Assembly: GCA_050273025.1 (NCBI GenBank)
Contig: CP158635.1
Coordinates: 21,700,001-21,764,000, forward strand
Source of the DNA: Cenococcum geophilum
Lineage: Eukaryota
Length of the DNA stretch: 64,000 nucleotides
Direction: 5' to 3'
The notes under the pieces are model-generated. The model made no database searches and was not told the origin of the DNA. It saw only the letters and a list, made by a program, of their open reading frames with translations. Below, piece after piece: positions 10,401 to 62,164 of the stretch (the first letter of the stretch is position 1; every line of letters starts with the position of its first letter). A program made the translations under genes and the position numbers.

Positions 10401-13400
10401 ACTAGGATAGTTAGAAGAATACTTAAAAGTAATTAAAGCAGAAAGATGTGTACGCAGGCACTTTAATAGACGCCCTATAGAAGAGAACTATACCGTATTA
10501 TAACTAGCAAGATAGGAAAAAGCTAAAGCTATTAAAAAAGCTATAAAGCTAGAATATAGGGAAAGAGTTAGTGAGGTTAAAGATATAAAGGGACTGTGGT
10601 CTCTATACGCCTAGGCTAAAAAACGGAACATTATAAGAATAACATTCACCCTAGACATTAAAGATGTAACGGAAACGCCACAGCGCATAGTAGAAGGAAA
10701 GACGGCAGCCCTAAGGGGATCTTTCTTCCCTATATCCCCAGCTGTAAATTTAAGGGATATACACGAATACTAATACCTTAACCTACTGTGGGTACCGGAA
10801 ATCAACGTATAGGAAGTAAAAGAAGTAATTAGAGTAACTAGCCCTAATAAAGCCCTAGGAGAAGATTAGCTACTAAGCCGAATACTATATAAAGCTATTC
10901 CGGAATTAAAAAAAGCTACTTACCTAACTGTTTAACTACTGCTTAGCAGAAGGGTACTACCTAGCCCACTTTAGACGATTAATTATAGTAGCACTACGAA
11001 AACTAAAGAAAGGAGACTTTAAAGACCCCAAAATGTATAGGCCAATCGCCCTTTTAAATACACTGGGTAAGGTTATAGATAAGATACTTATAAAGCGGGT
11101 GCTATTTATAGTAGACGCCTACGGTATACTGCCACGTATATATATAAGAGGTAGGGCAGCAGCCGGATATAAGTACGCAGTGTACCTTCTTATAGAGAAG
11201 ATATACGCCGTATGGCAAACAAAAGAAGAAGATATAGTAAGTCTGCTTATGCTAGACGTAAGTGGAGCGTTCGATAACGTATTATATAGGAGACTCATTT
11301 ACTACCTCTGAAAACGAAGAATTCTAATATAAATGGTTAACTAGATTAATAGCTTTTTAAGTAGAAAATCTACCTACATTAGATTGCCAGAGGGAATGTT
11401 AGATCGCTTCCTTACCCCAACCGAAATCCTATAAGGCTTGCCTATATTGCTAATACTCTATCTCTTCTATAACGCAGACCTTTTAGATATAGCTATAGAT
11501 AAGGACGGACTAAGACACGGCCTTATTATAGGTTATATTAATGATATAAGCATTATAGTTAACGGGAAAAGTATAGAAGAAACAATAAGTACGTTAGAAA
11601 TGTTATATTAAAAAGCGGAAACATAGGCGCATAGACACGCCTTAGTATTCGTACTATAGAAATATAAACTTATTCACTTTATCTAACCAGGAAAGAAAGT
11701 AACAGAAAAACAACGGAAACGTCCTCTAGTGCTTACACTAAAGGACGGGAGGACTTAAACAATAAAACTAATAACTAAAGCCCGCTACCTTGGAGTTATA
11801 CTAAATAATAAGCTTACAGGAAGAGCCTATCTAGATTATATAGTGGAAAGATTAACGGGATAACTAGTATGCCTCTTAGGCATAGCAGGATCTATATAGG
11901 GCATTATAACAAGATATATACGTCAGCTATATATTACCACTATCCTACCGCGAATGCTATACACAGCCTCCTACTAGTATATACTAAATGGAGGATACGG
12001 GTTCGCTAATAGGGAAAAGAAAGTATATAATACGCTAGCACAGATCTAATATAGAGCGCTCTGTCTTATAATAGGAGTTTATAGAATATTAGCTAAAGCC
12101 GAACTAGAAGTAGAGATGCACATACCACCTATTAAAATATCACTATACCGCGTAGCGGAGTCGTCCCTAAACCGAATTAAGGGCTTACTACTATACTACA
12201 AAATCTAGCAACTAAGGCAACCCGCCCCGACTAAGTTTAAACTATATAGCCTTCTTTAGAAGTTAGAGAATAATGTAGCACTCTACCTTTTAGAAGGGAC
12301 GCCACTAATAAAGGTAATTTAACTAGAGATAGTCTGCCTATAGGTTAAACCACTATAGATCTAAATTACTAAAGGAATAGAGGTAGGAAAATAGGAGTAT
12401 AAACAAATTATAAAGCAAGCTAAAGGAAATTAAAGGCATGTGCTAGTATATATAGATAGTAGCAAAATCAATAGAGAAGTTAGGGTATTAGTATGTATAC
12501 TAGAACTAGGACTTAAAGTAGTAAATTATATAGAAACAAACTAAGTTAGTATAGTCTATATAGGGGAGCTACAAGGGCTCCAAATAGCCCTTAATTTAGC
12601 CCTTAACTATTTACTAAGGATTAAATACCTTACAATCTTTACGGATAACTAAGCAGCAATTTAAGTAGTAGTAAAACTACGTAACTGCTTAGGCTAATAC
12701 CTAATATATAGAGTATAGGAAAGGCTCTAGGCCGCACAGATAATGGGAATTAAAGTAGTAATATACTGGGCCCCTTTATACGTCGGGATTAAAGGAAATA
12801 AATAAGTAGACGTTCTTATAAAGCGGGTAATAGGGTAGAGAAAGAATAGTATAGGGCTAAAGGCCCCTACCTTTAAGTCGCTTTAAAGCCTATTATCTAT
12901 AGTAAAAAGGATAATAAAGGTAAGACTAGAAATAAAATGGAAAACGGAGTAGGAGAAAGAAGGGATAGGGAGAGAGCTATATAGGCTAGCACCTTAAATC
13001 TTAAAACGGAGACTAAGGGTATACAGTAACTTACCTAAGATCCTCTCTACCGCCCTTACGCAAATCCACACAGGCAAAGTAGCCCTTAAAAGCTACCTCT
13101 ATAGGATTAAACGTGCGCCTGACTTAAAATGTATATATGGAGACAAATAAACAGGACGTCACGTCCTAATTAAATGTCCCAATTTTAAAGAACTAAGGAA
13201 AGCAGTCTGGCCGTATAACAGCCAACCTTAGAGCTTTAAAACGATCTTAAACTAAATATAGTTAGTAAAGAAGGCAGCATAATATATAGTACGAATAGGC
13301 CTTCTAAGGCAGTTTCTGGAGGTAAGAAATAGACTTAAAGTAACCAACTAAGTCTCTCTTAGTAGTAAATACATTATATGCGATATTGGCGAAAGACGGA

Positions 13401-35702: not shown

Positions 35703-37767
35703 TTTATTTACTATTTAGGCTTTTTCTAAGCGCTTAGCATACTACTAGGCTTCCTTATAAGATAGTTTTTTTATATATAGTTTAGGGTCCTTTTAGTCTT
35801 TTCTAGTTAAAGCTAGTATAGGGTAAATAGCCTATTTCTAGTTAAATAGGGGCAAATCTAGTAGAGTTATGGGGTAGAGTTGCCTGGGCATAGTTTATAA
35901 GGGGTAGCAGTTTAGCCTAGTTATCTTAAAAGTAGTTAATAAAGGGCTGGAGCCTCTAATTTAGGTATTAGTTTATAATCTCCGTCTAACCGTTTATTTA
36001 GGGGTAATATACTATAGAAAGCTTTAGCTTAATACCTAAGATCTAAGTAAATTTGTTTTAAAAGGCTAATATAAACTACGGCCTGTAATTAAAAACAATA
36101 GTATTTAGTAGTCTATAAATTTAGTAGACGTAGTAGATATATAGTTAGGCCGCCTCTTTAGTATTAATATTTTTATAATAGGGAATTAAGAACGGGCGCT
36201 TACTAAAGCGGTTAACTAAAATTATAACTATATTGTATCCGTTACGGTCTAAAGGCAGTTTATAAAAATCTATAGAGATATACTACTAAGGGCGTTCTAG
36301 TATTAGAAGGGGTTTTAATAGCTTTAGGGTCTTATCCGATAGAATTATAGACCTATAGTAACCGTTGCAGTTCTATACGTAACGGTTAATATCTATAGCT
36401 ATTCTAGGCTAGTAGTAACGGTCACTAATAATCTTATAGGTCTTATTTTTTCTAGGATAAGCCGTAAAGACCTAGTTATGTACTTCGGCAATAAGTTAAG
36501 TCCATAAATTTTATTCCTTTACTACTACTAGCTATACCTAATACTTAAGCAGTCTATTTTTAAGGGACTATAGGCTAGTAGTGTTCTTTGCCTTTTTGCG
36601 GTACTCCTATAGAGAAGAGGCCGTATGGTTTACCTACAGTAGTTTATTAATAAGGTTAAGTTCCGTAGAGCTTATAGGGCATATTTCGGCTTTTAAAGAT
36701 CCTATACTTAGTTCTACCCATATCTAAGGGTTAAGGTACTGTACCTATAGTAGCGTCTAGCTCTATAATAAGGTCTTTACGGCTACCTATTTATCTAGGT
36801 CTTATTTGCGTCTTATAAGTATATCCGCACAATTAATAGCGCCTAGCCTATATATAATTAGGAAGTTAAACTAAGATAGGGTATCCGCCTAGCGCGTCTA
36901 CCGTACTATAAGGGCCTTTATTATTATAAAATATTTTAAGGCCTTATAATTAGAAACTACCTAAACAGGCTTAGGGGTCCCTTCTAATTATACTCACTAG
37001 TGCTAGAAGCTAGAGATAATAGCTAGCATTTCTTTATTATAAACTAGGTAGTTTAGCTTAGTATATATTATAGTCTTTAAATAGTAAGCAATAGGGTGCT
37101 ATTCTCCGTCTATTTACTTCTGGGAATAAACGCTAGCTATAACGCCGTCTAAGGCGTTAGTTTCTAGCATTAAGGGCCGTTTAGGTTAAAGTGGGTAAGA
37201 AAGCGGAGACTAGTCGTTTCTTAAGCTTGTTAAAAGCCTGCCTATATATAGTATTAAAGTAAAAGGGCTAATCTTTTTGGGTAAGGCAGTTAAAAGGCCT
37301 AGTAATCTTGCTGTAGTCCTTAATAAAGCGTTAGTAGAAGTTATAGAAATCTAGAAATAATTATACCCCCCTTATAATCCGTGGGGGTGCTTACTAAGTA
37401 ATTATAGCCGTTTTTTTAGGTTGGTTTTAATTTTATCCATACTAACAATAAACCTTAGGTACTTTATACGTTTAATACTAAACTCTAACTTCTTAATATT
37501 GGCCTAGAGGCTAGCCTTACGGAGCTATTAGAGGACTTTATAGACATACTCCTTATATTCTAGCTTATTCTTAAAGTAGATTATAATATTATCTAAGTAG
37601 GCCGTATAAAAGTCGTTAAGGTAGTATCTTATATTTATACATTTTGTAATAGGTCTAAAATATAATAAGATCCTTTAAGCTAGGGTTTCTTTTAATTTAG
37701 TAAAAGGCCTAGCGGATATTAAGATTTATAAAGACCTTAGCTCTACTTATTTGGGCTAGTGTCTTAT
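35703..37767 (-). mobile_element. Gypsy pol remnant (RT end, RNase H, integrase), internally deleted
   Basis: YLNDFYTAYLDNIIIY (~37580-37625) and LGIKLKLSIVYYP*ING*TEIIN*YLN*RLQPFINY (~35935-36040). Confidence 0.85.
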
Positions 37768-52953: not shown

Positions 52954-55900
52954 TGTTACGGACGCTTTAAGTACGATGTTATGACTACTTAGAGAGGAGT
53001 CGGAAGAAGCTAGTTAGTTAATTTAGGCACAGTCTAGGATGGAGCCGATAGAACTATGTGACGAGGAATGGTAACTAAGGTCACGTGGAGTGATCTATAT
53101 AATCTATACGATCTATGGGATCTGTAATAGAGTAGATAGAGCACATATATATTACATACAAGAAGGATTTTATAGGAGTACGGTTGTGTATTTAAGGACC
53201 CTTAGTCCCTACCTAGATAGTTCCTTCCTTGTAGTAATTTTTAGAATATAATTAGAGTTAATTTATTAGGCAACCACTCCACCAGTTGTTATTACGTTGT
53301 TAACTTTTATACTTATATTTCCTACATACCTAGCCCAATAACGAGCCTATCGTAGTTCCTGCTATAAGGTTCCGTTATATAATTACTACCTAGTTATAGT
53401 ATTAATATAAGAAGTCAAACAACATGCCACTAAAAGCAGCCACTACAACGCTATTAACGGTAGCAACTACTTTAAGATCAGGTAACGACACCAGCATGGC
53501 AGATACTAACTCTTAGCAACCAGTAACGGTCGGATAATTACAAGAGATAGTTAACTAGTTAATAACTAACAATATAGTGTTAGAAGAAAGACTTAACGGG
53601 ATAGGAGCGGCAAAAATTAAGCTACTATTAATTAAGAGATTTATAGGGGAAAGATTAAAGCTTAAAGGATTTCTTACGCAGATATATTTTAAGGTCTCGC
53701 AGAAAGGAGTAAAGTTACCAATACCTGTAAATCGGATAGCCTATATAGGACTATTCTTATTAGGAAAAGCACTTAAGTGGTTTAAACCTTATCTTACGGA
53801 GATATAGGCAAATAGAATAACGACCACTAACTAAGACGTGCGATTTATATTCTTAAGTTAGAAAGGATTCGCAGAGCGACTTATACAGATATTTGGAGAC
53901 CTGGAAGAAATAACTATAGCAGAAAGAAAACTCCAGAACCTCATATAATAAACTTTAGTAATTAAGTATATAACATAGTTCTAGACACTAGTAATATAAG
54001 TAGAGTGGAATAATAAGGCGCTTATGGCACAGTATAAGTAAGGACTTAAGGCTAAAGTCTAGGACGTAATTATTCTAATAGAAGATACGGACACCCTAAG
54101 GGAACTATTAAATTAGTTAATTAAGATTAACAATTAGATCTACCAAAGGGAATAGGCTAAGAGAGGTTAGGATAGAGTTTTATAGTTATATAAGGCGCAG
54201 AGTACGCAATAACAAAAGCTAAGTTAGAAACTATAGTATAGCGTAAAGCTAATAGACCTAAGTAGTACTAGAGAAGCCTATAAAAATTAGAGTAAGAAAC
54301 TATAGAAACCTAGAGGATAAGGATTAAGTAATTAAAGGTCTAAGGAGCAGAGGCCGAATTAGGGATCTTAACAGTAGAAGACATTTAGGCGGACTCTATA
54401 GCAAGAAAAATAGTTTAAAAAGGGAGCTTATATAAATTACGGAAAATAGGGTTATTACGTTAGAGACTATAGAAGTAGGTAGAGTTACTATATAGTAAAA
54501 GGCATAAGACTAGCAGACGATATACATATATAGAGGGACGATAATATACTGCGAGGAACAAAAGAATATTTAATTAGAAGTTTTACGTTTTATTATAATA
54601 ACGCATGCCGAATTTATAAGGACGCTAAGTATAGCGTAAGCTATTAGCTATAGGAGCCAGCACCTATAGGATATAGAGGAACTAATAAACCAGCTCGCAG
54701 ATTAAATATTAAGGATGATGATTTTAATATAGGCGAAGCATTCCGTAATAATAAGGCAATAAAAGCGGTCTACTGGGGACACGCAGCCATCGGAGATGTT
54801 ATACTAGAGGTAGAGGATAATTCCACTACAGAATAGGGAACATTAGTGGGGATTAAGACACCACTAGATATAATGTCTATCGCTTTATAAGACGCAAGAG
54901 AAGTAGGATAGCGAACCACTTTAGCACTCAATAAAGGCAAAAGGCTAAAGGCTTAAGATTTTTACAGCGAGATAAGAGATAACTAAGATTCTTAAGATGA
55001 GATAAGGTAAGCTTAAGGACCTATAATAGACAATAACTGATAGAGCAGAGCAATAGCTTAGTTTAGTAATATATAAATAAGCTTAGGACGAAGTTTCCTA
55101 AAGGTATAAAACTCTTAAGATGAGATAAGTGAGATTTAAGACTCTTAAGATAAAATAAGAATACTAAGTAAGCCTAGTTGGACTAAGGCTAGAGCAAAGC
55201 TTAAGTTAGAAGCAAGCTCAGGATTAAAGAATCTAAAGGGTCAAGAATTTGGAGTATAAATTAGGACACCCATAAGTAAGAGGTAAGGAGCTTCTTTATA
55301 GATTAGAGAATCTATAGCGTAAACAGTAATTAAACTAAGAGACGAATATATAGACCTAAAAGACTTACTAGTAAAATATATTATTCGGACTAAAGATCAA
55401 AGAGTTAATACTAAGATTAAGAAGTAAGAGAACTTTGAGAATCTAAGCGCAAGACGCAAACTAAAAGAAACTATAGAAGAGTTTAGACAAAGAATCATCG
55501 CATAGTAAGAACAGAAACTAGATAAGAGATCTAGTATATTAGGACGTATAAAGGACAGAGCACTAGTATAAAGAATTACTAATAGGCCTAGGGTAGGTAT
55601 ACTAAGAGCTAAGTGGCTTACTAAATTAGAAGATAAAGAGGATCTAGGAATCCTAACTAGGTTTAAAAAACAATATATAAAAGGCTGTTATAATATAGTA
55701 ATAAGAAGATACTTCCTTACGGACAAGCCGTATATACTCTAGTAGCTATACTAAAAGTAGTATAGGCAAAGGCATAATAATAAGTGGGAAGATTTCTATA
55801 TATGGTTAGATAAGAAAGTTATCTAGGACCACCTAATTATAAAAAAGGCCATAAATTATATTAAAGGAGCCTTAATTATAACGTTAAAGGATCTAGAGGA

Positions 55901-58900
55901 ACGTTTAGAGGACTAGAGAAGTAAGAGACGCATCTTAATACCTATAAATAAAGTTATAACGTTTAGATTAGCATAATAGAGGTTTAAACTTAAAGATAAA
56001 GACGAGCCAAGAGTTAACCTAAAGCACCTAGTACACTACACGTTATCATAGATTGCGTATATAGACGACATATATAAGATGTATAAGAATCTAAAAGAAA
56101 AGAATCGGAAATACCCTATAAGGATATACTGGATGACAGACAAGCGATAGTATAGGAATGCCAAATATATATATAGATGGCATCCAGCAGAGGTCCAAGA
56201 GGAAGGAAGTTTAGTACTTTAACTAGGAAGATTCCTTATAGAAGAATGCTTAGATAGACAATAGTGGTGGGAATGCCTAGAAAACATGTATCTATAGTAT
56301 ATTAAAGATAAAAAGTGAACTAGGCATTAGCTAAAGAATGAGCTAAGTGTAATAGGATTAAGCAGCTAATAGTTAGGAAAAGTAGAGGCCTATAGGACTA
56401 GAGGGAGCTAGTGGTAGAGCCTTAGACCCTTAAAGGAATTTAAGGACAACACCTAAATTTATAAGTTAAATAGTAAGATTAGCAGTTCAAAGCGCTAATA
56501 GATAGTGGAGTAATAAGGAACTATATCTTACTAGTAGTAGTTAAGAGAATAGAATTACCTTATAGACAAAAGGAGGAACCTTACCTATTAGTAACAATTT
56601 TAGGAGATCCGATAGCCTATGGAGGAGGTATTATTAATCTTAAAATAGGACCTATTTAGATAACTATTAAAGGGAGATAAATTAAGATATCTTTCGATAT
56701 CCTACTATTAGGAAGGGATAAGGCAGTATTAGGGATGCCTTAGTTATAGGAATACAATCTAAGGATCGATTAGATTACAGGTTAAGTTAATATTAGAGAT
56801 ACTTAACGCTATAAAATGTAATAATAAGCCAAGTTAGTATAGTACTAAGTAGGAGCAACTTATAAAGAAATAAAAAAAGGACTAAGTTATATACTAAAGA
56901 GATACTATAAGTATGGCAAGAAACTATAGTTACTAGAAAGTAAAAAGCTGTTAAAGTATATAGTATAGGACTATAAGATAGAATTGGAACTAGGAATAAG
57001 TCTAAAGTTCTTTCTAATCTATAAGCTTACTAAAGAAGAAGGTAGAGTACTAAAAGAGTTTGTTTAGGAGAACTTATAAAAGGGATATATTAGACCATTA
57101 TAGTTATTAGTAGATTATCCAGTACTGTTCGTACTAAAGAAAAATAGCAAACTAAGGCTGTGTATTAACTATAGACAGTTAAACAGCATTACTAGAAAGG
57201 ATAGGTATCTTTTACCCTTAATTAGCGAGATTTAAGATAGAATAGGTAATGCGTAAATCTTTACGAAGATAGATCTGAGATCGGCGTACTATTAGATTAG
57301 AATTAAGGAAGGCAACGAATAGAAGGCAGCCTTTAGGTTAAAGAAAGGACTATATAAGCCATTAGTTATACAATTTAGGCTTATAAACGCACTAGTAATA
57401 TTCTAAAAGCATATTAACAATATATTAGGAGAGCACTTGGATGAATTTATTATGGTATACCTTAACGATATTATTATCTACTTAATAACTAAGGAAGAAC
57501 ACAGAGAACACGTTAAATAGGTCTTAAAGAGACTATAAGAAGAATAGATGCTAGTAGTAATTAAGAAATGCGAGTTCTTTACTAGGAAGACCGATTTTAT
57601 TAGATTTATTATTAAACTAGGCTAACTTAGCATAGATTTAAAGAAGATTAAGGCCATAGTGAATTGGTAAGAACTAGAGAACGTTACGTAGTTAAGATTG
57701 TTTTTAGGGTTTTGTAATTACTGCAGAAGGTTTATAGCATAATAGTTAAAGAATATTAAGCCGTTTACGCGATTAATAAAGAAAGAAGAACCATGGGTAT
57801 GGGGAGAGGAATAAAGAAAACTCTTTAAGAAAGTTAAAGAGTTGTTTACCTAGGAGCCAGTTCTTAAAATCTATTAACTAGGACTAGAGACGGTTATAGA
57901 GATAGATATATTAGACTATATACTAGGGGCATACTTTATATAAAGATATTAAGATAGATAGCACCTAGTAGCATATTACAGTTAGAAGATAACACCACTA
58001 GAGTTAAACTATGACATTTATAATAAGGAGTTATTAGGTATAGTTACAGCATTAAAGAAATAGAGAGCATTCTTGCAAGGCACAGAGAAACTATTTATAG
58101 TTAAGACGGATTATAAGAATCTAATAGGATTCCTAACAATAAAGGAACTTAATTAAAGATAGGTTAGATAGGCAGAGATGCTTGCGGAATACTATTTTAA
58201 GATTTAGTATACTAAGGGTATAGATAATATAAGGGCAGATACTCTAAGTCGTAAAGCTAAACTATAGAACAATAAGAAGCCATTAGGGGCTTTACTATAA
58301 AAAGACATAGATGGATTAATTAGGTATAATTATCCGAAAATTATAGCAACTTAGGAAGAGTTAGAAAAAGTCTATAAGATATTAGAAAGCTTTTAGGTAT
58401 AAAGGATTCTAAAAGCATAACTAGAAGATTTATAAATAGATATATACAAAAATCAAGAAGCGAAGTACATCCTAAAAAGTATAGCAGAGCAGTTTATAGA
58501 AGACTTTTATAAGGGACTAACTTAAGGACATAATAAAGCTACGGGCTTAGTGTTAAGACTTTAGGAGGAGTATATTATTAATAGGATCTAGAGGATAGCC
58601 AGAAAGGTTACTAAAAAGTATTTAGATTACTAAAGAAATAAACTAATAAGGTATAAGCTATATAGAGGGCTATAACCTATTAAAACACCAGAGAGACTAT
58701 AGGAGGTTATATTATAGGACTTTATTATTAAGTTACTAAAATTAAGAGATCCTATTACCAGATAAGATTATAACGCGATCTTAGTAATAGTAGATAAGCT
58801 TACAAAGTAGGGATACTTTATAGCATATATAAAAGAAATCTTAGCGGAAGATGTCGCTAGAATCTATATTAAAGAAGTATTTATAAAATATAGAGCACTA

Positions 58901-60924
58901 AGTAAGATTATATCGGATAGAGATCTAAGATTCGTAGCAGTATTCTAGGAGGTATTCTTAGCAGAGCAAGGAGTTTAAGCAGTAACTTCTACCGCATATT
59001 ATCCGCAGACAGACGGTTAAATGGAAAAATTAAATTAGATACTAGAACAGTATCTAAGGCATTATATTAATTATATATAGAATAATTAGGTATCGCTATT
59101 ACTAGTTATATAGTTTGCATATAATGCAACACCTTAAGAAGGAATAGGTATATTACTATTTAAGGCGAATTATGGATATAAGCTAAGGACATTATTATTA
59201 CTACGGTAAGTAAAGAAAATAAGTAGTATAGCTAAAGAGAGAATAAAGACGTTAATAAATCTTTATGCAGACCTTATAGAATTAGCAAAGAAAGTATAAG
59301 AGAGAATAAAAAAGTACTATAATGCTAAGAGATCTAAGGGACCAGATCTTAAGGAGGGAGATAAAGTATAGCTACTATATAAAAATTTTAAAAGTTAACG
59401 ACTAAGCAAGAAGTTAAACTATGTTAGACTAGGACCTTTCGAAATTATATAGAGGATTTTACTAGTTACGTTTAAGTTAAACCTACCAGCCAAAATAAAG
59501 ATCTACCCTATATAGTATATTGCAATGCTAGAGCTAGTACACAGGAATATTAAGCTACTAGTTTACGAAGCAGACACGTATAGAGGATAGGAAGAAGATA
59601 AATAGCAAGTTTTGAAGATCGTTAGTTATAAGGACATTGACGATAAAACATAGTATAAGGTTAAGTGGATAGGTTATAACGAGACTACCTAAGAGCTACT
59701 AGAAAATTTAAAAAATGCTATAGGAAAGGTACAGGAGTATTGGAAGAGATTAGGTTAGGCAGCATTAACAAAAAAGGATCGCCAAAGAATAAGTTACCTA
59801 AGGGGGACCTAAGAAGAGCAGTTGCCGAGCTATTTAGATCTATTTCCTTCTCTATTAGAAGAGAATCCGTTCTTTTATTACTAAGTTTCTATAAACCTTA
59901 TTTTATAAGTTTCCACTCCTTAGAACGAACCTTCTTACGCACCTTCTTAAGACGGATTAATTAAGCGGATGCCGCAAGACGAGATTCTAGAGCCCGTTAT
60001 TAAGCATCGGCAGCTTCTTATTCAGCATTATAAGAGCGGCGCAGTTCCGCCAGAGTAATAGACAGTTTATTATCTAGCCGCGCAGCAGCAGATTAAACAT
60101 AAGACCCTAAAATAAATTAATTAGGGAACCAGACGACTATTAAAAGCAATAGGTCGCGTATATTTAGCATTAGAGATAGAGTAAACATTATAGGACGAAT
60201 GAATATTCGCTTTAGTGCACTCTAAATAAAAGGACGGTTATTATAAAGATAGGTTCGCTAACGCAATATAAACTAACCCCTTTTTCGAACAGCAAGAATA
60301 TAGAGATGGTATAATCTCACTAAGAGACAATATCGCAGTAATAGTGCGAGCACGACGAGTAGTTAAGGAAGAAGAAATTGCTTTAGGTATAATAAGCAAT
60401 AATATTAACTAAATTAATTAGACGGACATTATACCCCTAGTAAACAACTTAGAGATATTTTAAATCTTTAAGAATAAAGATAAAGAGGAGGGAGATAGTG
60501 TTATAGACGCTTTAAGTACAATATTATAACTACTTAGAGAGGAGTTAAAAGAAGCTAGTTAGTTAATTTAGGTACGGTCTAGGATGGAGCCGATAGAGCT
60601 ATATAACGAGGAATGGTAACCAAAGTCATATGGGGTAATCTGTATAATCTATATAATCTATAGGATCTATAACAGAGTAGATAGAGTACACGTATATTAC
60701 GTATAAGAAGGATTTTATAGGAGTACGGTTGTGTATTTAAGGACCCTTAGTCCCTACCTAGATAGTTTCTTTCTTGTAGTGATTCTCAGAATATAATTAG
60801 AGTTAATCTGTTAGGCAACCACTCCACCAGTTATTATTACGTTGTTGACTTTTGTACTTGCATTTCCTACACATCTAGCCTAATAATGAGCCTATCGTAG
60901 TTCCTGCTACAAGGTTCCGTTACA
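52954..60924 (+). mobile_element. Full-length chromoviral Ty3/Gypsy element, RIP-inactivated
   Basis: 426-bp LTRs at 52954-53379 and 60499-60924; TSD ATAAT (52949-52953, 60925-60929); PPT 60477-60498. Gag from ATG 53424 with knuckle ~54430; protease (LGMP*L); RT ([18 protein letters not shown]); RNase H; integrase (YYPQTDG*ME); chromodomain ~59590-59745. Confidence 0.96.
59720..60390 (-). pseudogene. Antisense two-exon accessory gene of the Gypsy: Zn(II)2Cys6-like cluster + coiled coil
   Basis: Exon 1 60390-60162, 55-nt intron 60161-60107, exon 2 from 60106 in frame. De-RIPed spacing CX2CX6CX13CX2CX8C, then ARLDNKLSITLAELRRSY..ALESRLAASA*LIRLKKVRKKVRSKE. Confidence 0.7.
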
Positions 60925-62164
60925 ATAATTACTATACTTTTATTTTTTTAACTATAGGTGGGTTATAAGTTTATACTAAACCCTATATTTACTTTGGAGC
61001 ATATCCTAAATAGTAATAACTTTATAATAGTTAGTAACCTAAGTAAGGCCCTAATTACGGCATAGGGCATTAAATATCTTATAACTAAGCGTGTCCCTAA
61101 GGTTAAAATCTCCCGAAAAATTAATACTCTACATTACCTATAGTAAGGAGGTAATAGTTTCTATATTAAGCGCTAAATTGCGCTATTTAATAACTTTATA
61201 GATCTCCCGCGTATTAATTACTTTAACTATAATATTGCTAAGTATAGGAAGAACTTAGTTAATAATACCCTTAAGGCCGTTTTACTGCTACTTAATAAAG
61301 AGTAAATAGGTGCCTATACTGCGCTTAAATATATAATAGGCGGTATTTTGCTAATATAAGGCCCTAGTAGTGTTGGGAAATTAACCTTTCTAACTATTTT
61401 AGTACGATACTAGTATTAACTTAGGTTGCCTTAGTAGGATCCTACTAGAATCTAGGTCTTATTACTACTTAATTACTAACTAAATATACTAGCTAAGGTA
61501 ATTAATAATGCGCTTATAGAGGACTATAAGGTACTAATTACGTAAGGCCGTCCCACTAAATTTCCTATCGTTCTTTACTGCTATATATGCTTAATGGAAA
61601 CTAAGGTCTATAAGTAGGATACTATTATATAGTAAATAGCGGCAGGCATTAATACTTGTCTTAAGTATTTTAAGGAATAGGATAACTATGCTATAATTAA
61701 TAAAGACGCGTCTATGCTAAATATAGCATTCCTGCTCTACTATACGTTTAAGGCTAGTAATACTACTAGCTTTAATAAGCGGTTATAGGTTATAGATTTA
61801 TCTAAAGGTTAATAGTTATTACGTCTTATAGGTATCCTAAATAGTAATGGAAACCTATATTCTATTACGGACCCTAATATAACTAAATATACTAAATTCC
61901 GCCAATACTTATACTAATTTACGTTTGGTAATAATATAACGCAAAATAATAAGATAGGATTAACACTTGCGGCTAATATAGTCATCGCAGACCTAGCTAG
62001 AAAGGCTAATATTATTCTTATAATACCCAATATAGTCTCGCAGACTTATATATATTCTATTAGCGCTATATGCGTAGTTTTCTATAATAAGGCTAAGAAG
62101 GCGTCTAAGCTAAGTAGTCTTGCTAGGTTTGCCTAGAGTAGACTATATTTAATCTAGGGAGGTC

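Follow-up and report, generated by a model that had tools for sequence, protein, structure and literature searches.

In the 64,000-nucleotide stretch of Cenococcum geophilum DNA analysed here (assembly GCA_050273025.1, contig CP158635.1, positions 21,700,001–21,764,000; hereafter the window, in whose own numbering all positions are given), the minus strand from 60390 to 59718 very probably represents an accessory gene of an ascomycete lineage of Ty3/Gypsy chromoviruses, in a copy that repeat-induced point mutation (RIP) has destroyed. The host element of the gene is a long terminal repeat (LTR) retrotransposon of this class, lying on the plus strand, and the gene is situated at its 3' end, in antisense orientation, between the end of the chromodomain encoded by pol on one side and the polypurine tract and 3' LTR on the other. 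It consists of two exons and a spliceosomal intron of 55 nt. The window copy is dead and functionless by itself. An antisense, intron-containing gene at this place had been proposed in a first-pass annotation made from the letters of the window, and the existence of such a gene is confirmed by its relatives, by intact copies, and by the selection acting on it. Every sequence feature named in that annotation, the exons, the 55-nt intron, the TGG split codon, and the motif codons among them, was found at the coordinates given there, as follows:

60162–60390, minus strand: exon 1 of the antisense gene; the first codon is ATA (ATG in the relatives), and there are two internal TAA stops.
60190–60300, minus strand: the six-cysteine motif CX2CX6CX13CX2CX8C, which by codon reading is Y-C-Y-Y-C-Y in the window.
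60107–60161, minus strand: the intron, 55 nt, AT(<GT)ACGC...TTTTAG; the donor G is mutated to A, and the borders are AT...AG.
59718–60106, minus strand: exon 2; its product has a long helix, in which the KVRKKVRSKEWKL block is conserved, and a C-terminal tail with TPVPFL at its end, and the exon closes with a TAG stop at 59720–59718.

The codons at the six motif positions are TAT (60300), TGT (60291), TAT (60270), TAT (60228), TGC (60219), and TAT (60192): Cys is retained twice and TAT occurs four times, with spacings X2, X6, X13, X2, and X8. Removal of the intron joins T and GG into the split codon TGG (Trp) and restores the reading frame. Damage to the window copy comprises the change of ATG to ATA at the start, of GT to AT at the intron donor, and of four Cys to Tyr, as well as nine in-frame stops, all TAA or TAG (two in the 76 codons of exon 1, seven in the 128 codons of exon 2). 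Further, the Pro preceding the first Cys is changed to Leu, and an Arg within the motif is changed to Cys. The dinucleotide preferred by RIP is CpA; since TGY codons pair with CpA on the opposite strand, Cys-to-Tyr changes are the expected RIP damage. The last ~38 nt of exon 2 overlap the conserved end of pol on the opposite strand. The window exons with stops masked as X matched no Pfam family.

Relatives of the gene were found in protein databases. With exon 2 as the query, a word-index search yielded one protein fragment, 61% identical across 76 aligned columns, and an exhaustive phmmer search in a space of 1.84 billion representatives yielded 34 proteins at E ≤ 1e-3, nine of them at E ≤ 1e-10, with the best E-value of 6e-24. 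One of the exon 2 matches, P0021, additionally holds the cysteine part and, when itself used as the query in an N-terminal search, gives 19 proteins among 74 candidates; the profile search of the gene family gives 39 proteins. All these relatives are nameless or "hypothetical" open reading frames (ORFs) from metagenome collections, one of them with an evidently unrelated automatic name. In P0042 (...MPSCSRCAKEGLVCVAIAAPAGRQPSSCAECTRANMRSFCDVRSVSDAEWSRVQSAAAKLD...), the six Cys are arranged exactly as CX2CX6CX13CX2CX8C; in P0060 (239 aa), the entire protein, again with six Cys, lies within one frame. Conversely, when natural relatives were compared with the whole window by tblastn, only the antisense locus was matched, in the two predicted frames, with E-values of 1e-24 to 1e-29; hence, the similarity is more than a product of chance.

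Genomic copies were collected from metagenome contigs, scanned with a pattern derived from a six-sequence alignment of the family. Among 511 pattern-matching stretches, 90 encode a relative, and the best 80 of these were kept (L001–L080). They contain 91 ends of exon 1, 75 of which were paired with a start of exon 2 by a BLAST rule; the 16 unpaired ends were excluded. Two of the 75 copies are undamaged, namely L002 (80 + 1 + 128 residues) and L003 (80 + 1 + 116 residues), and the window copy is 71–72% identical to them. Both have Cys at all six positions with the spacing CX2CX6CX13CX2CX8C, as do P0042 and P0060. Throughout the 75 copies, the six motif columns are occupied solely by TGT/TGC or TAT/TAC, with all six Cys retained in nine copies. 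The suggestion of the first-pass annotation that RIP turned Cys codons into the four TAT codons is thereby supported: the intact natural copies have Cys at these positions, not Tyr or stops. The place of the gene is also conserved, as 89 of 91 gene 3' ends fall at −36 to +20 nt from the end of the pol chromodomain on the opposite strand, the commonest overlap being 34 nt. The pol ORF of L003 has Pfam matches to protease, RVT_1, RNase H, integrase, and Chromo; thus, the element is of the Ty3/Gypsy type with a chromodomain, and the gene occupies, in antisense, the interval from the 3' end of its pol to its 3' LTR.

Analysis of the intron in the 75 paired copies shows an intron of 55 nt at the same site and with the same +1 frame shift in 72 of them. 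In these copies, 58 nt (T + 55 nt + GG) separate the last Glu/Lys codon of exon 1 from the first Ser codon of exon 2; the other inter-codon spans are 67 nt (one copy) and 130 nt (two copies). An intron of 64 nt in one copy (L001:1171) and introns of 127 nt in two (L060:4958 and L068:280) are at the same position, hence the length differs between subfamilies, and the phase is kept. With these three copies set aside, the donor is GT in 21 of 72 introns and AT in the other 51, with no other variants; the 3' end is TAG in 68 and TAA in four; and the split codon is TGG in 69. The window intron is closest to the introns of L016, L045, L069, L071, and L075. The relatives, therefore, have GT...AG borders at a conserved site, and removal of the intron regains the frame, as characteristic of spliceosomal introns; in the window copy, the borders are AT...AG. 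The GT donor assumed in the first-pass annotation to have preceded the mutated one is, thus, recovered from natural copies. Since the intron is antisense to the genomic RNA of the element, it outlives retrotransposition.

Six database proteins (P0042, P0008, P0013, P0060, P0061, and P0065) cross the exon junction contiguously as AEW-S, and many other relatives end shortly past AEC or AKY, which is the product of reading into the intron. The intron is, thus, kept in genomic copies and is missing from the contiguous, spliced-looking database forms, as would be expected from the first-pass annotation. The simplest reading of the contiguous AEW-S forms is that they are putative spliced transcripts. 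Among the sequencing runs listed for L003:1–1200, none was of RNA; in one run (0.05 share of the sampled words), contigs cover only 1–240 and 841–1160, with no joint, and so bear on neither expression nor splicing. A separate observation concerns the junction of P0021, ...SVSDAECTFHVRSAAARLD... (AECTFHVR), which is in frame and exceeds the spliced AEW-SRVQ form by one residue. This junction matches neither the spliced nor the intron-retaining pattern; use of another splice site, or a genomic copy that has lost most of its intron, may account for it.

The two intact genomic copies, L002 and L003, were used to estimate the nonsynonymous (dN) and synonymous (dS) divergence. Exon 1 shows dN 0.047 and dS 0.749 (dN/dS 0.062), with 8/3/27 differences at codon positions 1/2/3; exon 2 shows dN 0.127 and dS 0.561 (dN/dS 0.227), with 14/14/38 differences. 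Between the window copy and the intact ones, G>A and C>T changes together account for 106 of 193 mismatches with L002 and for 113 of 175 mismatches with L003, the reverse changes numbering 25 and 20, respectively. Transversions, that is, changes that RIP does not make, were used to read selection past this damage. At codon positions 1/2/3, window transversions are distributed as 4/3/11 in exon 1 (compared with L003) and 6/6/21 in exon 2 (compared with L002), and the transitions are flat, 21/17/20 and 30/19/18, respectively. The prevalence of third-position transversions, the flat distribution of transitions, and the dN/dS values together indicate that the lineage evolved as a coding gene and that this copy was later destroyed by RIP. 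The antisense frame is under purifying selection in the lineage, as the first-pass annotation had anticipated. That annotation had also named three findings that would speak against its gene, i.e., Tyr or stops in place of Cys, lack of a GT donor, and lack of purifying selection; all three were looked for in the natural relatives, and none was found.

The best-scoring Pfam family for the translations of exon 1 is DUF3716 (PF12511), with 20.1 bits in L003 (E 6e-4), 18.6 bits in L002 (E 1.7e-3), and 13.3 bits in L001 (E 0.084); the matches cover positions 3–59, 4–59, and 8–59, respectively, of the 59 positions of the profile. The Pfam gathering cut-offs are 22 bits for DUF3716 and 21 bits for Zn_clus (PF00172), the family of Gal4-type clusters. 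At E ≤ 1, Zn_clus is matched by four and DUF3716 by three of the 20 members scanned. Matches in the ESM Atlas serve as leads only: among the matches listed, the nameless Ascomycota clusters have scores of 0.91 and 0.83, and the first cluster with a listed Pfam family is a DUF3716-bearing one (28% of members) at 0.77–0.78, with no Zn_clus-bearing cluster among the matches listed. A distant relation of the cysteine module to DUF3716, near the cut-off, is likely but unproven. Judging from these profile scores and the spacing of the cysteines, the module is probably a zinc-binding, DUF3716-like six-cysteine module, similar to Zn2Cys6 clusters in spacing only.

The AlphaFold2 model of P0042, built with 18 aligned sequences, has a mean predicted local distance difference test score (pLDDT) of 79.2, and shows one helix at residues 77–151 (block pLDDT 96–99). 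The helix contains the invariant basic block VREKVRSKE (KVREKVRSKE), and the C-terminal tail has the conserved pattern SPL..FF..LSMLP.L.S.DTPVPF. A homodimer model with four zinc ions scores 0.51, compared to 0.00 for the best of three controls, and passes the mark. The same mark was reached by 21 of 30 solved one-chain pairs and by none of 23 solved single chains, these rates being only a rough guide here due to the inclusion of zinc; on eukaryotes, it was reached by 17 of 29 pairs, one of seven pairs without an older solved relative, and none of 30 single chains. The dimer runs agree in at least 89% of contacts, with a partner pLDDT of at least 78. The contacts recur every 3–4 residues and link residue i with approximately 230−i (133–97, 143–87, 115–115), hence the predicted helical pair is antiparallel. 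The coil of Gal4 is parallel. P0042 is devoid of the last ~50 residues, and the pairing of the full protein may differ. The heptad-like dimerisation coil of the first-pass annotation is, therefore, retained in part: the long helix is predicted with high confidence and the dimer model passes its controls, but a fixed heptad register finds no significant support and the pairing is not of the parallel Gal4 kind.

Several observations weigh against the gene, and the protein it encodes, as described so far. The contiguous AEW-S forms come from short contigs (921–1423 bp), and their RNA origin is only putative. No Pfam family reaches the curated cut-off for the cysteine domain: the DUF3716 scores given above are all lower than 22 bits, the Zn_clus scores are 17.0, 14.9, and 13.1 bits (best E 0.0063), lower than 21 bits, and P0042 and P0060 show no DUF3716 match in Pfam, having only weak Zn_clus matches. 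Searches of the PDB by sequence and by profile yielded nothing significant, the best matches being CD8 beta (E 0.36) and PPR1 (E 0.56). The cysteine region of the structural model is of low confidence, with a block pLDDT of 47–63 and a mean of 52.7 in the domain-only model, values too low for comparing the fold of the cysteine domain; the Foldseek search of the PDB with the whole P0042 model gave no matches at E ≤ 10. Finally, the fixed-register heptad test (residues LIVMF, five helices) was not significant, with the observed value reached by 16–39% of shuffles.

The intact protein of ~200 residues would comprise the N-terminal six-cysteine module, DUF3716-like and presumably zinc-binding, followed by a helix of ~75 residues with the invariant basic block and predicted dimer pairing, and then by the conserved C-terminal tail. 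Our best inference is a dimeric nucleic-acid-binding factor predicted to serve its own element: the protein would bind zinc and nucleic acid and may act as a regulator or a targeting factor for the element, and the promoter of the gene may lie within the 3' LTR or close to it. A more specific version, in which the lineage makes an antisense, spliced, dimeric, zinc- and DNA-binding factor of the DUF3716 kind for its own LTR or chromatin, with some members having ~650 nt coding on both strands, is put forward only tentatively.

It is conceivable, though doubtful, that the protein is real and is not a DNA-binding regulator, and that it helps the element via contacts with proteins or RNA instead, as an adaptor that binds zinc, as a factor that binds RNA, or by acting on host silencing. 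Membership in a DNA-binding family is not demonstrable for the protein, and the antiparallel dimer model would set the two cysteine modules at opposite ends, unlike the arrangement in Gal4-type factors; also, in plant elements, the antisense ORFs that separate pol from the 3' LTR are described as having unknown function in the accessible text of PMC7264820. However, the sole functional lead for DUF3716, the nearest Pfam family, is DNA-related, and the helix carries the invariant basic block KVREKVRSKE.

The first-pass annotation had assigned the gene to the Gal4-type Zn(II)2Cys6 family, and a captured or derived true transcription factor of this family with a parallel dimerisation coil is an unlikely explanation. 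The protein resembles Gal4-type factors (PF00172; PPR1, PDB 1pyi) in its six Cys, which form two CX2CX6-8C halves, and in the long helix with predicted pairing behind them; weak Zn_clus matches occur in four of 20 members (best E 0.0063), the top, non-significant match in the PDB sequence search is PPR1 (E 0.56), and short helices at residues 35–40 and 58–63 in the low-confidence part of the AlphaFold2 model begin at both CX2C pairs. On the other hand, Zn_clus stays below the cut-off in all members scanned (at most 17 bits vs 21), and the alignment is by halves and out of register: in L002 and L003, profile positions 18–37, i.e., the second half, fall on the first Cys triplet, and in the PPR1 alignment this triplet also falls on the second half of the PPR1 cluster, not motif on motif. 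DUF3716 scores higher, over its entire profile, being itself below the cut-off. The middle spacer is 13 residues in P0042, L002, L003, and the window, outside the range of Gal4 clusters, CX2CX6CX5-12CX2CX6-8C, as quoted in the first-pass annotation, from which we take it; the spacer exceeds that range by one residue. The ESM Atlas matches listed include no Zn_clus-bearing cluster, and the dimer model that passes the mark is antiparallel.

That the true coding sequence lies on the plus strand, as a long extension of pol at its C-terminal end, with the antisense ORF as its by-product, is very improbable. In both intact relatives, the pol frame is open for ~281 codons beyond the chromodomain, across the entire antisense gene, and shuffling of synonymous codons in the antisense exons seldom keeps it open (exon 2: 3 and 27 of 2000 shuffles; exon 1: 127 and 232 of 2000). 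Since the intron shifts the phase between the strands, the gene frame and the pol frame can be distinguished. The variable site of exon 2 is position 3 of the gene frame, which is position 2 of the pol frame (39 of 68 differences between L002 and L003), and a pol-frame pattern is absent from the intron (5/4/2) and from the upstream 150 nt (5/5/7); the tail as a real coding sequence is largely refuted by this codon-position pattern in exon 2, the intron, and the upstream part. Further, Pfam recognises no domain in the tail, stops interrupt each of the three frames of the pol strand in the L001 subfamily, and the GT..AG insert of 55 nt, the frame shift, and the contiguous spliced forms would be left unexplained. 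As an observation in its own right, the open pol tail spans the gene, the intron, and the polypurine tract and continues into the LTR (L002:3787–4718 and L003:32–906; the window counterpart is 59756–60498). The codon-position pattern shows no selection on pol-frame amino acids here, and the L001 subfamily has no open tail; the open tail opposite the gene may represent dual coding on opposite strands.

An origin of the motif and the ORF by chance in AT-rich, RIP-mutated DNA, which would fit the frequency of TAT in such DNA and the 16–28 stops per 243 codons in every one of the six frames of the spacer between the chromodomain and the polypurine tract (59740–60470), is practically impossible, being refuted by homologues at E-values down to 6e-24, the existence of intact copies, the tblastn match of the window at 1e-29, and the concentration of transversions at third codon positions.

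The element that carries the accessory gene in the window, with the gene at 60390–59718 (minus strand) lying between the pol end at 59755 and the polypurine tract, has the following other features:

52954–53388, plus strand: 5' LTR of the RIP-mutated Ty3/Gypsy chromovirus, from self-BLAST and alignment.
56558–59755, plus strand: the readable part of pol (reverse transcriptase, RNase H, integrase with SH3, and a chromodomain remnant) with many RIP stops, from translation with X at stops and Pfam; in the intact relative L003, Chromo occupies the corresponding place.
59756–59758, plus strand: TAG in the pol frame directly past the chromodomain, after KRLG; in intact relatives, this is a Gln codon and the pol frame continues there.
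60482–60495, plus strand: the polypurine tract AAAGAGGAGGGAGA, which ends shortly before the 3' LTR, read from the sequence.
60499–60934, plus strand: 3' LTR, from self-BLAST and alignment; its inner edge is 108 nt upstream of the antisense start codon.

Self-BLAST of the window aligns the LTR pair at 52954–53405 and 60499–60951, over 453 bp with 87.4% identity; in the alignment, the common part of the LTRs has TGTTA at one end and ATTACTA at the other. The pol frame at 56558–59755 contains 77 stops in 1067 codons, and its Pfam matches are RVT_1, RT_RNaseH_2, RT_RNaseH, and SH3_Tf2-1. Both the spacer and the whole element were judged against the usual thresholds of RIP indices: the TA/AT index amounts to 1.37 in the spacer and 1.56 in the element, the corresponding values of (CA+TG)/(AC+GT) being 0.71 and 0.53. 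The skewed dinucleotide indices, together with the excess of C:G to T:A transitions, identify a RIP-mutated repeat. In the ~3 kb between the 5' LTR and the readable part of pol (53408–56500), a single gag frame is not readable; in the pol frame, this region shows short recurring peptide-like units (e.g., KGLRFLQRDK / LRFLRXDK), a hint of tandem repetition or of inserted sequence in the gag region. No further copies of the antisense gene or the element are present in the window, as self-BLAST returns the LTR pair only and tblastn returns one locus.

The whole window (1–64000) is a RIP-mutated, AT-rich repeat compartment. Its GC content, in 2-kb steps, is 26–47%; it contains only four stop-to-stop frames of at least 120 aa and no tRNA genes. 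At least two other retroelement remnants are seen here, unrelated or only distantly related to the element: a degraded pol remnant at ~35863–37623 (minus strand), 29–31% identical to the pol of the element, and an RVT_1 fragment at 10928–11308, a further degraded pol remnant.

The layout of the antisense gene is already known from brtn of the Boty element, described in 2011, hence its novelty was overrated in the first-pass annotation. In Boty-like elements of Botrytis cinerea, the space from pol to the 3' LTR is reported to contain an extra gene in antisense orientation, brtn (Zhao 2011, cited in PMC8365987 and PMC7264820). As far as the accessible portions of these papers go, brtn is an additional ORF of BcGypsy1 that is missing from the current B05.10 annotation (PMC8365987), and Boty is one of the elements listed as carrying antisense ORFs, of function stated to be unknown, downstream of pol and ahead of the 3' LTR (PMC7264820); "brtn-106" is mentioned in PMC4227169. 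The likeness is one of layout, i.e., an antisense gene between pol and the 3' LTR, and the family is set beside brtn by description only. A Monilinia transcript resembling both truncated Pol and BRTN (available text of PMC5987419) fits a convergent, abutting arrangement as in the window element. No protein named BRTN is among the database relatives from the sequence and profile searches, and the word brtn is absent from two supplementary files of PMC8365987. The searchable portion of the literature describes the existence of brtn, not the fold and role of its protein, and no searchable paper was found to link an antisense retrotransposon gene to a zinc cluster.

Similar antisense ORFs between pol and the 3' LTR are reported for the plant LTR retrotransposons Grande, RIRE2, Retand, and PvRetro13 (PMC7264820). 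According to the accessible text of this paper, they share the position and orientation, are conserved within families, and have unknown function; they differ in having plant hosts and in that no cysteine module is mentioned there, and a sequence relation is not expected. In the searchable literature, DUF3716 appears in two papers only, one of which (as seen in the available part of PMC8232023) deals with REP9-1 and REP9-2, located within a Zymoseptoria class II transposon; thus, fungal proteins with this best-scoring Pfam family for our cysteine module are likewise known on a mobile element. They differ in that they belong to host genes or to elements of another type, and the score of the module is below the cut-off.

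Beyond fungi and plants, a layout of this kind is seen in an animal retrovirus. The minus strand of human T-cell leukemia virus type 1 (HTLV-1) encodes, close to the 3' LTR, the nuclear factor HBZ, which exists in a spliced form and dimerises through a helix; HBZ belongs to the bZIP family, unrelated to the protein described here, and its similarity to the antisense gene is an analogy of layout only, with no homology implied.

The window copy is a clean example of reading a gene through RIP damage, and it leads to a real, selected, and spliced gene family tied to one place in chromoviruses. Through this family, mobile elements become linked to a DUF3716-like domain, whose function Pfam leaves undefined. 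DNA binding by the protein would mean that fungal Gypsy elements have a regulator or a targeting factor of their own. Should the protein indeed bind DNA as a DUF3716-type factor, a function could be assigned to DUF3716, it would become evident that retrotransposons of fungi carry their own regulators, and the protein would be an analogue of retroviral antisense proteins.

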